Assembly (NCBI GenBank): GCA_000004985.1
Contig: GG738880.1
Direction: 5' to 3' (one strand)
From: Naegleria gruberi
Taxonomy: Eukaryota
Length of the DNA: 64,000 nucleotides
Position 1 is the first letter of the stretch. Each line of letters starts with the position of its first letter. Below, piece by piece: positions 3,951 to 7,218 of the stretch. The position numbers were made by a program, and so were the translations under genes. The notes under the pieces are model-generated. The model made no database searches. It saw only the letters and a program-made list of their open reading frames with translations, and had not been told where the DNA came from.

Positions 3951-4971
3951 TTGTACATAGGGATGATCGTATTACCATCACAAGCCGAAGGAAGGGAAAT
4001 GAAGATGAGTTTCAGACCATCAGCAAAGAATGATTCATCGGCCTTTGTTGCTGCTCTTCATAAGGAACCTTCTGCTGATAAAGTAAAAAAGGAATCAAAG
4101 AAGAATATAGACTCGATAAGACATGTTATACGCGAAGAGGATAAAAAGATTGATATATCATTGACTTCAGTTGATGGCCCTTTATTTGTAAGTGTTGGTT
4201 AAATACCAAAAAGGCGATAAGGAATTAATTCTCTTACTATTATTTAGAATCATGCTGTTAAGAGACATTTCATCAAACCACCAGTAACTCAATCATTGGA
4301 TCGATCAGCAGGAAAGAAGAGAGTGGAAATTACAAAGGAGGAACGTTATGAAAGAGCTGGTGTTTCCACACTGAAGGAAGAAGCACAATTCCATAAAAAG
4401 ATCTTTAAAGAACAACCAGAACGTAGGGATAAACCACAAGGAAAGGCAGTTGTGAGAGCCACACCAGATCCTCAAGTTGCTGGTAAAATATCCTGCCCTT
4501 CTGAAAAGGAATCAAGAAGAAAATTATTTGCCGATAAGAACACTGTTGCAAAGAAGGAATATGACTTTAAGGACAGTAGAAAGAGGATTTCAAGTCCAAA
4601 ATATAAAAGCATTACAGCTCCATTCCCAGTCAGAGGTGGAGGAATGATGCCAGAGGATGCAAAGATTGGTATTAAGGTGCATTCTTCAACCAAACCAAAA
4701 GATCACGGAGATGTTATTTCATATACATTTGGTAAGTGATTTGATTTTTCAATATTAACATTTATTGATAAAAGCATCCATGAAGGATAAGGAACAAAAG
4801 CCAACGGCTCCTAATAAGGAAAGATTAGCTTACGAAAAGTTGATAACAGAATGCGGAAAACAACAAGCTCAAGAGAATAGTGCAGTCTACAATTATTTAA
4901 AATCAAGGAGATCAGCTAGCTCACTAGCTTTAACAGAGCATTTATATGATCACAAAGGTCCAGTTGTGTAG
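3951..4971 (+). CDS. Hypothetical lysine-rich protein. Three exons at 3951..4187, 4248..4731 and 4775..4971, with introns of 60 and 43 nt. The start could be a later in-frame ATG.
   Basis: Three consecutive ORFs in the supplied ORF track are joined by GTAAGT donors (TTT|gtaagtg and TTTG|gtaagtg) and AG acceptors (tatttag| and ataaaag|). I recognised no domain. Confidence 0.5.
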
Positions 4972-5040
4972 AATAATACTAGGAATTTCTTCAAAATGTA
5001 AAATAAAATTATTGAATGTTGCTAATTGAATACTGATTAT

Positions 5041-6085
5041 TTAATAAGTATCAATATATTTAGCTCTAGCATCAGCTCTAGCTAACCATCCCTTCAAGAA
5101 CTTGTTATTGGCAGTACCTGGTCTTCCCCAATACAAATAATCCTTTCTGTGTCTTTCGTTCAAAAGTCTAGCGAATGCCTTAGCATCTTGATTCTTGTAT
5201 CCACCGAGTTCATTGAGGTATTGTCTTGATCTACCAGTACCAGAGTTGACAGCAATATCAGCACAGACATAGAAAGCAGGTTGTGGCAAGTTAGCACATC
5301 CTCCTGGAGTGAAATAATTAGTAGTGTACAATTTGGCAGCACATGTCTTATAAACAGCAATATTCTTATTGTAAGCATAGTAACAGAAATCAGCTGGATG
5401 ACCAGTGTAACCACTAGCCAATGGAGCAAAGATTCCATTTCTATTATTCCAACATTCACTATTGTATTTAAGAAATAATATTAATTGTCAGATGTCAACA
5501 GTTCAGTAAACTAATAAATTTCAATTGAAACACTTACGCTGGAATAACACCCATACAAGTGTAACCAATCTTTCCTTGGAATGAATTTCCAGAATCACTA
5601 GCCCAATTTTGACACTTTCCTTCACTCTTGAAAATTTCAGCCAAAGCTTCAGCAGCCTTATCACCAGTCTTACTATCACGTCCACCGGCAGTTGATGATG
5701 AACCAGTATTAGTATTACTATTAGAACATGCCATCTTTAAAAATTGAGCAGAAACCCATTGATTGTCACCAATACGAGCCCATTTAGTTCCATCCTTATC
5801 AGTAGTTTCATAGACAGTGACAGGAACATTATTTCCCAAAGTCTTGACGAGGTTTCCACCAGGACTTGTTCTAACGTTCAATGCGGAGGCAACATTGGTA
5901 CAACGAGATTCTGGAGCGAAGGCTTGTTGATCAGCCAATGATTGGACATTCTTTTCGAGTAATTGTTGTTTAATTTCTTGGATCAAAGCTTTGGCTAATT
6001 TCTTCTCTAATGAGAGAGCACTTGTCAAACCAAGAATGACACACAAGAAGGTGGTGATGAGGAGAATCACGGAGAGCTTTTGCAT
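5041..6085 (-). CDS. Secreted bacterial-type peptidoglycan hydrolase with signal peptide, SH3b-like domain, GH108 lysozyme-like domain and PG_binding_3 domain. Exons 6085..5538 and 5458..5041, intron 5459..5537 (79 nt).
   Basis: The N-terminus MQKLSVILLITTFLCVILGLTSALS has a signal-peptide shape. An SH3b-like segment follows (VRTSPGGNLVKTLGNNVPVTVYETTDKDGTKWARIGDNQWV). A GH108-like core follows: KSEGKC...GKIGYT...LPQPAFYVCADIAVNSGTGRSRQYLN, where GH108 has EGGY...GIT...FD.AVN.G...A...LQ. A PG_binding_3-like tail follows: LNERHRKDYLYWGRPGTANNKFLKGWLARADA. The splice (GC|gtaagtg...caatag|T) joins the two ORFs in frame. Confidence 0.6.
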
Positions 6086-6256
6086 TTTTTTTTGTGATGA
6101 GAAAATTGATACTATTTTTAAGAATTTTGGTTATCATAATGATTATCAAAACTATTGGAAAGATCAGTAAATTGAGATTTGAGAAATACAACAAATTTTA
6201 GTGTTTGTAAATTAGACTCTAAAAATATATTAAGAAAATTTTCAAAGTGAATGTAA

Positions 6257-6330
6257 GCCTTCCTAGCTCAGTTGGCAGTAGCGCTGTCCTAGTAAGACAG
6301 AGGTCTTGGGTTCGATTCCCAAGGGAGGCA
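6257..6330 (+). tRNA. tRNA-Thr (anticodon AGT)
   Basis: 74-nt cloverleaf. The acceptor stem gccttcc/ggaggc has one G-U pair. The D arm is agctcagttggcagtagcgc. The anticodon stem ctgtc/gacag has loop cTAGTaa. The T arm is ttggg-ttcgatt-cccaa with the GTTCGATTC box. A T-run lies downstream. Confidence 0.85.
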
Positions 6331-6383
6331 TAGTTTTTGCATTTTCTATATTTTTACAAATGGGTTTATTCATATTTTACAAT

Positions 6384-7218
6384 TTAGAAAGAAGTCCAAC
6401 CTCCATCCACAGTCATAACACTTCCATTCACAAAACTGGCATCATCAGACACCAAAAACAATGCAACCTTTGCCAATTCTTCTGGTTGACCAAGTCTAGG
6501 AATCAACTTAGTTCCCAAATACATTTTTCCAGCTCCCAATGGATGAGGTGACTTGATTTCAATTCCAGTAGCAACACTTCCAGGTGCAATAACATTACAT
6601 CTGATCTTATCACTGTAATGGAATGCAACATTCTTACTCATTCCAACTAATGCATGCTTACTTGCAGTGTAGGCAATTCCAGCTCTACCACCATGTAATC
6701 CACCAACTGAGGCAATGTTTACAATGGATCCATTACCTTTTTCAAGGAAAATTGGAATTGCTTTTCTCATGGTTCTCATTGGAGCTGTTGTGTTAACAGA
6801 CATGACTTTCTCCCACAATTCATCTGAAATATCGTGACATGGAACAAAGTTGTCCATGATACCTGCATTATTGACCAAGATATCTAGTGTTCCAAACTTG
6901 TTGATTGTTTCTTCGAAGAGTTTGTCCACTTCTTCTTGTTTGGATACATCACATTTGTGTCCAAAAGCTACACCTCCTAATTTTTCAATTTCTTCAACAG
7001 TTTCTTGAATTCTTTGTTCAACAACATCAGTAACCACAACCTTGCATCCTTCTTCAGCATATGTAAGGGCGATAGCCTTTCCCATTCCTTTAATAAAACC
7101 ATAAATTAACACATGGACACAGTTCCATTAAAACAGTAAAATAAAAAACAAACTTACCAGAGCCAGATCCAGTAACAATGGCAACTCTTCCTTGCAATTT
7201 CTTTGTTTCAGTACTCAT
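6384..7218 (-). CDS. Short-chain dehydrogenase/reductase (3-oxoacyl-ACP reductase or glucose dehydrogenase-like). Exons 7218..7158 and 7087..6384, intron 7088..7157 (70 nt).
   Basis: Exon 1 encodes MSTETKKLQGRVAIVTGSGSG, and the splice (G|gtaagt...ttattaaag|GA) completes the Rossmann motif TGSGSGMGKAIA. Downstream the protein has NNAGI and the YTASKHALVGMSK (YxxxK) catalytic motif. Confidence 0.85.

Follow-up and report, generated by a model that had tools for sequence, protein, structure and literature searches.

A eukaryote-resident GH108-type hydrolase with an SH3b domain, of probable bacterial descent, in Naegleria gruberi

The 64,000-nucleotide stretch of contig GG738880.1 analysed here (Naegleria gruberi assembly GCA_000004985.1; the whole stretch is called the window) carries, at 5041..6085 on the minus strand, a gene for a protein that combines a hydrophobic N-terminus, an SH3b-type domain, a catalytic domain of glycoside hydrolase family 108 (GH108) and a short helical tail. 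Its structural and evolutionary identity, as a GH108-type hydrolase with an SH3b domain that is resident in a eukaryote, we regard as practically certain. The fuller explanation, namely that this is a resident amoeba gene of bacterial descent for a secreted or phagosomal peptidoglycan N-acetylmuramidase that digests bacterial prey, we consider likely. The gene is a sound and well-supported example of a known phenomenon, and is mildly novel in its membership of a Cys-rich subfamily and in the scattered eukaryotic distribution of that subfamily.

Gene structure and residence in a eukaryotic genome

The list of open reading frames (ORFs) and their translations place the gene between an ATG at 6085 and a TAA at 5043..5041, and all of its features given below lie on the minus strand. 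By the same ORF list and translation, exon 1 (5538..6085, 548 nt) encodes amino acids (aa) 1-182 together with two nucleotides of codon 183, and covers the protein from the signal peptide through a helical spacer, the SH3b domain and a Ser/Thr/Asn/Gly linker to the catalytic flap; exon 2 (5041..5458, 418 nt, of which the last three, 5041..5043, are the TAA stop) encodes aa 183-321. On comparative evidence they are separated by a 79-nt spliceosomal intron (5459..5537, GTAAGT...ATAG, phase 2). The preliminary description of this DNA had proposed a gene with a 79-nt GTAAGT...AG intron at exactly these coordinates, and only its protein length needs amendment, the spliced coding sequence of 966 nt giving 321 aa and not 320 aa.

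The intron was deduced because the unspliced frame stops at once, directly after ...GVIPA, and because splicing restores both the frame and a sequence identical to that of the N. fowleri homologue: the junction then reads GYTCMGVIPAECWNNRNGIFAPL, with the same residues in N. fowleri. The match to Pfam family PF05838 runs uninterrupted across the junction in the spliced product only. On an environmental contig (L005), a prokaryotic gene caller broke the gene into two ORFs exactly at the splice point, and the contig carries a 183-aa ORF that matches the exon 1 ORF at 99% identity. The gene model rests on this comparative evidence, from which splicing at 5459..5537 is predicted. A tblastn search of the 64-kb window found no second copy of the gene elsewhere in it.

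The bacterial type of the domains, and the two ORFs that a prokaryotic gene caller made of the gene on the metagenome contig, might suggest that the gene sits on a bacterial contaminant contig or in a mis-assembly, a concern already raised in the preliminary description, which had also claimed a eukaryotic context and host-like codon usage. Several independent observations speak for the latter. The frame requires a spliceosomal intron, and long ORFs across the whole window encode eukaryote-specific SAPS, VASt, F-box, ankyrin, SNF2, DUF4116 and Na+/H+ exchanger proteins, the SNF2 neighbour having its best match in N. fowleri (57% identity). The GC content at third codon positions (GC3) of the gene is 0.295, where its neighbours average 0.30, and its relative synonymous codon usage (RSCU) correlates with that of the pooled neighbours at 0.82, within the range of 0.80-0.95 seen for typical neighbours and far from the 0.35 of the homologue in the cyanobacterium Kamptonema. 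The homologues in N. fowleri (68% identity) and N. lovaniensis (68% and 54%) lie on scaffolds of 0.66-0.69 Mb amid ordinary eukaryotic genes. Contamination is thereby effectively refuted, and we assign it a negligible probability: the gene is a resident nuclear gene of a eukaryote that needs spliceosomal processing.

The homologous copies tell a similar story. The introns of the N. lovaniensis copies are at other positions, one copy having a single intron near its C-terminus and the other (C9374_004067; L010 4001..5144) two short GTAAGT introns around a 10-nt micro-exon, GGTAAAATTG, inside the catalytic flap, and a related copy that lacks the SH3b domain, on a eukaryote-like metagenome contig, is intronless. 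Intron positions thus differ among copies, which means that introns came or went once the gene was in the lineage. A truncated metagenome ORF (P0015) stops after the same Gln as is found at the N. lovaniensis micro-exon, which would be expected if its intron shares that position. A transcript from Percolomonas cosmopolitus (MMETSP0758) shows that the family is expressed in a second heterolobosean. Finally, comparison with the 98.7%-identical environmental contig reveals 3 differences in 966 coding nucleotides and 19 in about 250 nt of upstream intergenic sequence, which we read as a sign of purifying selection.

The GH108 catalytic domain

The preliminary description had recognised a GH108 lysozyme-like core, and Pfam, profile-profile and structural comparisons bear this out. 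PF05838 (Glyco_hydro_108) matches aa 149-256, encoded at 5239..5641 with the intron within, at 42.8 bits against a cut-off of 21.2 (E = 7.9e-11), covering positions 2-85 of the 85 in the hidden Markov model (HMM), and the homologues score 25-47 bits; an NCBIfam scan of the window protein gave no match. When the family alignment was compared by hhalign with 29 canonical GH108 proteins (a reference set in which PF05838 is found in 29/29 and PF09374 in 20/29), the two matched with a probability of 99.8% (E = 4e-29); the aligned stretch of 156 columns begins at the first helix and reaches the C-terminal end. Searches of the PDB gave weak matches with the window sequence alone (Brucella SagA, 7DNP, E = 0.21), and E = 0.004 with a profile. 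The fold was judged on an AlphaFold2 (AF2) model of the N. fowleri domain, which is 76% identical to that of the window protein and serves here as its stand-in. This model has a predicted local distance difference test score (pLDDT) of 91.7, and Foldseek returned SagA 7DNP as its best match, with template modelling (TM) scores of 0.66/0.69 and probability 1.0, followed by Neisseria NMB1012 (2IS5/2IKB) and then by T4 lysozyme.

In TtsA, the best-studied GH108 enzyme, a lysozyme-like Glu/Asp/Thr triad sits on a flap, and a C-terminal helix bundle sets substrate specificity (PMC6996933). The corresponding residues of the window protein are E155 (codon 5621..5623), D164 (5594..5596) and T176 (5558..5560), all three of them invariant in the 14 of 14 family members aligned, which come from Heterolobosea, unassigned metagenome contigs and bacteria. 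E155 and D164 align with the EGGY...D.GG motif of SagA, NMB1012 and the canonical profile; T176 aligns in the profile comparison only. The window protein has SEGKCQN (EGKC) in place of the canonical EGGY, an insertion sets its Asp and Thr seven residues further apart, and about 25 extra residues follow the flap.

The protein contains ten cysteines, one of which (C15) falls within the signal sequence. The preliminary description had taken the extra cysteines for an adaptation to secretion. This does not hold for C158, C177, C237 and C248, which are invariant in all members: since the bacterial proteins have them as well, they go back to the ancestor of the subfamily and do not represent a eukaryotic adaptation. 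The idea can apply only to C62/C120 and C185/C208/C222, which are missing from the nearest bacterial members, the latter three being confined to Naegleria-type copies. We propose that disulfides link C62 to C120, C158 to C177, C237 to C248 and C185 to C208.

The C-terminal helical region (5044..5238, aa 257-321), with its NERHR..Y and FLKGWLAR motifs, had been described as a PG_binding_3-like tail. Homology to that domain is upheld by profile-profile comparison: the hhalign match spans aa 268-320, opposite the PF09374 region of the references with its R..fY and f.kGW..R motifs, and the Hydractinia homologue has a sub-threshold PF09374 match (20.5 bits against 24.6) at HMM positions 44-75. The window protein itself, however, has no Pfam match to PG_binding_3 (PF09374) at E <= 10, and the alignment is gapped at the 'DGvIGpkTmaain' segment of the references. 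The tail is thus a truncated PG_binding_3 homologue, in which the C-terminal half is kept and the 'DGxIGxxT' half is deleted, and not a Pfam-level member of that family.

The SH3b domain, N-terminus and linker

The claimed SH3b domain lies between C62 and C120 (5726..5902, aa 62-120). In this copy the Pfam SH3_3 model (PF08239) scores 25.9 bits (E = 1.1e-5) and so falls marginally short of its cut-off of 27, and to that extent the claim goes beyond Pfam; it is sustained by the homologues, which pass the cut-off (N. fowleri 31.1, N. lovaniensis 34.3 and Percolomonas 40.3 bits), and by the modelled fold. An AF2 model of aa 58-124 (pLDDT 90.2) is all-beta with seven strands, and its best PDB matches by Foldseek are the bacterial SH3b domains 2KRS and 2KT8 from Clostridium, with probabilities of 0.96-1.0 among the best matches. 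Further neighbours are the SH3-like domain of a fungal GH24 muramidase (8B2G), endolysin wall-binding domains, lysostaphin and the NlpC/P60 proteins of Trichomonas vaginalis. Based on the model, aa 62-120 are predicted to form an SH3b beta-barrel. C62 and C120 are invariant in 12 SH3b copies.

The N-terminus, MQKLSVILLITTFLCVILGLTSALS (6011..6085), was assigned from hydropathy as a signal peptide, or possibly a signal anchor. By eye and by hydropathy it consists of MQK, a hydrophobic core of 17 residues and TSA/LS; the Kyte-Doolittle means over 11 residues reach 3.0, small residues occupy positions -3 and -1, and all eukaryotic homologues begin with a similar N-terminus. A signal-like sequence is thus present where the preliminary description had seen a eukaryotic-style signal peptide. 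The low-complexity Ser/Thr/Asn/Gly linker identified in the translation (5666..5725, aa 121-140) has no conservation across homologues.

Distribution and origin of the subfamily

A profile search of 1.84 billion cluster representatives returned 36 at E <= 1e-30, 72 at E <= 1e-10 and 812 at E <= 1e-3. By this measure the window protein belongs to a small, distinct Cys-rich GH108 subfamily of about 36 cluster representatives, from which ordinary GH108 proteins are reached only weakly. Several members are labelled in UniRef as 'TtsA-like Glycoside hydrolase family 108 domain-containing protein'. Heterolobosea other than the organism of the window have the family as well, and so do anaerobic gut fungi (Neocallimastigomycota) and the cnidarian Hydractinia, the named eukaryotic members being from Naegleria, Percolomonas, Anaeromyces robustus, Piromyces finnis and Hydractinia symbiolongicarpus only. 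The Hydractinia gene (XP_057302257; L011 8001..10137) is 2.1 kb long with introns and lies on the 37-Mb chromosome CM055238.1, between an ankyrin/SAM gene and a retrotransposon. Set against a broad bacterial and phage background, this eukaryotic distribution looks patchy.

In the anaerobic-fungal and cnidarian members, Cys-rich modules (roughly C..G.C....C....G.CP....KCC, one to several) occupy the N-terminal place where SH3b would be; such members are P0022 (Hydractinia) and P0027, P0028, P0033, P0039, P0040, P0042 and P0044 (anaerobic fungi and metagenomes). In the two members scanned, P0022 and P0028, the modules had no Pfam match, and they may represent an uncharacterised wall-targeting domain. 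Cys-rich repeats have been described on other wall hydrolases of Neocallimastix derived by horizontal gene transfer (HGT) (2026 preprint).

Bacterial members are few. A motif-pattern scan of GTDB with one genome per species (185,579 species), which detects copies bearing the subfamily motif only, found three loci, and cluster look-ups showed that cultured strains of Kamptonema and Phormidium carry members as well. The proteins of these Oscillatoriales cyanobacteria are among the nearest bacterial members, with 53-55% identity over the full 180-aa catalytic-plus-tail region; the proteins have 245 aa and an N-terminal transmembrane anchor. An M23 peptidase gene lies directly upstream of their genes and overlaps with them, and the Kamptonema locus also has a MobA/VirD2 relaxase and a NikA/MobC gene. 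Another bacterial member, in a metagenome-assembled genome, lies 3' of an M23 gene and beside phage baseplate and tail genes, and one protein is an M23-GH108 fusion. The bacterial subfamily is consistently coupled to an M23 endopeptidase, adjacent, overlapping or fused (L007 138..1225; L014 3261..5523; P0038). To judge from their neighbours, the bacterial members have mobile-element-like settings, a conjugative-element context in the cyanobacteria and phage-tail genes in the other case. No plasmid or phage vector was found in cultured collections: tblastn against PLSDB plasmids gave no match, no relative was found in IMG/VR viral contigs, and GenBank phages yielded a single weak lysozyme match with 34.7% identity over half of the query.

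The taxonomy of the best matches is as the preliminary description would have it, with the nearest homologues in Naegleria and the bacterial relatives more distant. In a neighbour-joining (NJ) tree rooted with canonical GH108 proteins, the window protein groups with two metagenome sequences at 98% bootstrap, as sister to the N. fowleri/N. lovaniensis clade at 99%. Deeper in the tree, the prokaryote-type sequences with transmembrane anchors form a paraphyletic base within which the eukaryotic sequences sit, with backbone bootstraps below 50. One could also read the data the other way round, with a subfamily that is eukaryotic in origin, or was spread among eukaryotes by an unknown vector, and with bacterial copies that are secondary, having moved from eukaryote to bacterium. 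The many best-scoring members that look eukaryotic, the scarcity of bacterial members and their location on mobile elements, and the lack of resolution in the NJ backbone would all suit such a reverse transfer, which we nevertheless think quite unlikely given that 29 of the 29 remoter GH108 relatives from the profile search look bacterial or phage-like (short, with the canonical EGGY), that prokaryote-type sequences are basal and paraphyletic, and that the SH3b partner domain is bacterial-type as well. Transfer from a bacterium to a eukaryote is most likely, being the parsimonious reading of these sequences, in which both the direction and the number of transfers are inferred. For the domesticated transfer from bacteria that the preliminary description had put forward, eukaryotic residency and the patchy distribution argue in favour, and the NJ topology agrees with it at backbone bootstraps below 50.

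A bolder scenario can be drawn from the same material, although we hold it to be fairly unlikely. The subfamily may constitute a distinct disulfide-stabilised 'CQN-type' branch of GH108 that very distant eukaryotes, namely heterolobosean amoebae, anaerobic gut fungi and a cnidarian, took into use against bacteria, outside the cell or in the phagosome. It may have entered eukaryotes once, from a mobile element of cyanobacteria, and then have spread from eukaryote to eukaryote. Each lineage would have added its own wall-targeting module (SH3b or Cys-rich repeats), and the extended flap and halved substrate-binding domain could give a cleavage specificity unlike that of characterised GH108 enzymes.

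Proposed function

The antibacterial or digestive lysozyme role that we favour can be put together from the predicted parts as follows. The N-terminal signal sequence would route the protein into the secretory/endolysosomal pathway, where the SH3b domain, clamped by a disulfide, would attach it to bacterial peptidoglycan, and the flexible Ser/Thr/Asn-rich linker would give the GH108 domain reach to the glycan strands. There the catalytic flap with E155, D164 and T176, probably stabilised by the C158-C177 disulfide, would act together with a substrate-binding helix bundle that is shorter than PG_binding_3, and E155, as the general acid, would bring about cleavage of the bond between N-acetylmuramic acid and N-acetylglucosamine (MurNAc-GlcNAc). 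The outcome would be that ingested bacterial prey is lysed, killed or digested. The bacterial ancestors probably opened local gaps in their own wall, with the M23 endopeptidase, for DNA transfer or particle release, and the eukaryote would direct the same chemistry outward. A long residence in the eukaryotic lineage would account for the host codon usage, the copy-specific introns, the duplication and the SH3b fusion.

It is conceivable that the GH108 fold instead acts on a glycan other than peptidoglycan, such as chitin, chitosan or the polysaccharide of the amoeba's own cyst wall, in encystment, excystment or fungus feeding. We find this unlikely: the SH3b domain is closest to the peptidoglycan-binding domains of endolysins and muramidases, the bacterial members have M23 peptidoglycan endopeptidases as gene or fusion partners, and there are members in animals and gut fungi, which do not have a Naegleria-type cyst wall. 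Still less do we expect the protein to be a non-catalytic peptidoglycan binder or sensor that uses the lysozyme fold as a scaffold, or the gene to be decaying, a very improbable reading that could draw on the change from EGGY to EGKC and on an N. fowleri paralogue, FDP41_007159, that seemingly lacks the catalytic-Glu segment. It would have to contend with the invariance of E155, D164 and T176 in all of the aligned members, with a catalytic domain conserved far more than the linkers, and with an ORF that is intact and near-identical in the environmental relative. In the paralogue (P0021/P0172, 947-948 aa), the terminal GH108-like domain begins at profile position 30, without the SEGxCQN...DSGN segment that holds the catalytic Glu and Asp; either this paralogue is catalytically dead or its gene model is faulty.

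For the secreted or phagosomal muramidase of bacterial descent, a number of points weigh on the other side. The hydrophobic N-terminus, with its 17-residue core, could be an uncleaved signal anchor instead of a signal peptide. SH3_3 in the window copy is marginally under the Pfam gathering threshold. The EGKC motif, the 7-aa flap insertion and the loss of half of PG_binding_3 could mean a specificity that differs from that of known GH108 muramidases, and with its backbone bootstraps the NJ tree does not fix the direction or the number of transfers. Enzymatic activity, substrate, localisation and splicing of the window protein are all things that we infer from its sequence.

Neighbouring sequence

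The tRNA-Thr neighbour mentioned in the preliminary description is present, as tRNA-Thr(AGT) at 6257..6330 on the plus strand. Beyond it, at 6384..7215 on the minus strand, lies a gene for a short-chain dehydrogenase/reductase (SDR) oxidoreductase, interrupted by a single GTAAGT..AG intron (about 7088..7147). Among named proteins its best homologues are SDRs of Paenibacillus/Bacillaceae (57-60% identity over the full length), its closer matches are unnamed metagenome proteins (99%, 76%, 69% and 61% identity), and no Naegleria-named protein is among the top 120 matches. Its codon usage departs from the norm of the window (GC3 0.50 against 0.30; RSCU correlation 0.51 against 0.80-0.95). By these features it is a second, possibly younger, candidate gene of bacterial origin.

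The environmental contig L005 corresponds, at 98.7% identity, to window 4551..6339, and the match ends just past the tRNA-Thr (about 6333..6339); beyond that point L005 (1..1299) has a DUF4116 gene where the window has the SDR gene. The break is explained either by an insertion or rearrangement at the tRNA that differs between strains or by a metagenome contig that was assembled as a chimera.

Relation to known systems and significance

The canonical GH108 proteins, represented by S. Typhi TtsA, Brucella SagA (7DNP), Neisseria NMB1012 (2IKB/2IS5) and gp61 of coliphage N4, share with the window protein the layout of flap and helix bundle and the Glu/Asp/Thr residues of the flap (the Thr by profile comparison), and supply its best structural neighbour, at a TM score of about 0.67. 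The window protein differs from them in having EGxCQN for EGGY, the 7-aa and ~25-aa insertions and four invariant Cys, in lacking the 'DGxIGxxT' half, and in its eukaryotic gene and its fusion with a signal peptide and SH3b. Whereas the canonical enzymes act from inside bacteria, in secretion and lysis, the window protein is presumed to act on prey from outside. The Kamptonema and Phormidium proteins (WP_007358322, WP_449415976) belong to the same Cys-rich 'CQN' subfamily and have all invariant residues in common with it, but they have a membrane anchor, no SH3b, no introns, and M23 and relaxase/NikA neighbours.

Laterally acquired peptidoglycan hydrolases are known from several eukaryotes, including the NlpC/P60 proteins of T. 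vaginalis, GH25 and GH24 muramidases, and the Dae amidases of ticks and mites. The T. vaginalis NlpC/P60 genes were acquired laterally, and laterally acquired antibacterial enzymes are an established concept. Like the window protein, the T. vaginalis enzymes (6BIM, 6BIQ) are bacterial-type wall hydrolases of a protist that carry SH3b, and the window SH3b model matches their structures; they are, however, cysteine peptidases acting on peptide stems and not glycosidases, and belong to an unrelated host lineage. The fungal GH24/GH25 muramidases (8B2S, 8B2G, 8B2F) are likewise eukaryotic and secreted, with an SH3-like wall-binding module that is among the top structural matches of the window SH3b, but their glycoside hydrolase families and folds are others. 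The window protein shares its subfamily with GH108 proteins of Anaeromyces and Piromyces, which have N-terminal Cys-rich modules where it has SH3b. A published list of HGT-derived carbohydrate-active enzymes includes GH108 transcripts of anaerobic gut fungi, naming the family without characterisation (bioRxiv 10.1101/487215).

A literature search on GH108 with Naegleria or amoebae found no paper that links them. The published 'Nf lysozyme' A0A6A5BDE0 (PLoS Pathog 2025) is not the window protein, its HHpred match being 2DQA. Nor do the 'lysozymes' of the Naegleria pangenome represent the window family, as OG0000047 is of the endolysin-A/COG3179-type. The structure 2DQA we take to be an invertebrate-type lysozyme.

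Bacterivorous amoebae must break peptidoglycan, and the means by which Naegleria does so are poorly described. The lysozymes of Naegleria discussed so far are of the i-type (N. fowleri) and of the endolysin-A/COG3179-type, to which the window gene adds a GH108-type with a wall-targeting domain. It also provides a well-documented case of a bacterial cell-wall hydrolase that a eukaryote would use against bacteria, and defines a small GH108 subfamily common to amoebae, gut fungi and a cnidarian. This subfamily could supply stable disulfide-bonded muramidases and offer a case on which ideas of repeated or serial gene transfer can be tested, and the N. fowleri copies may matter for the ecology of this pathogen, if they are expressed in infection or feeding.

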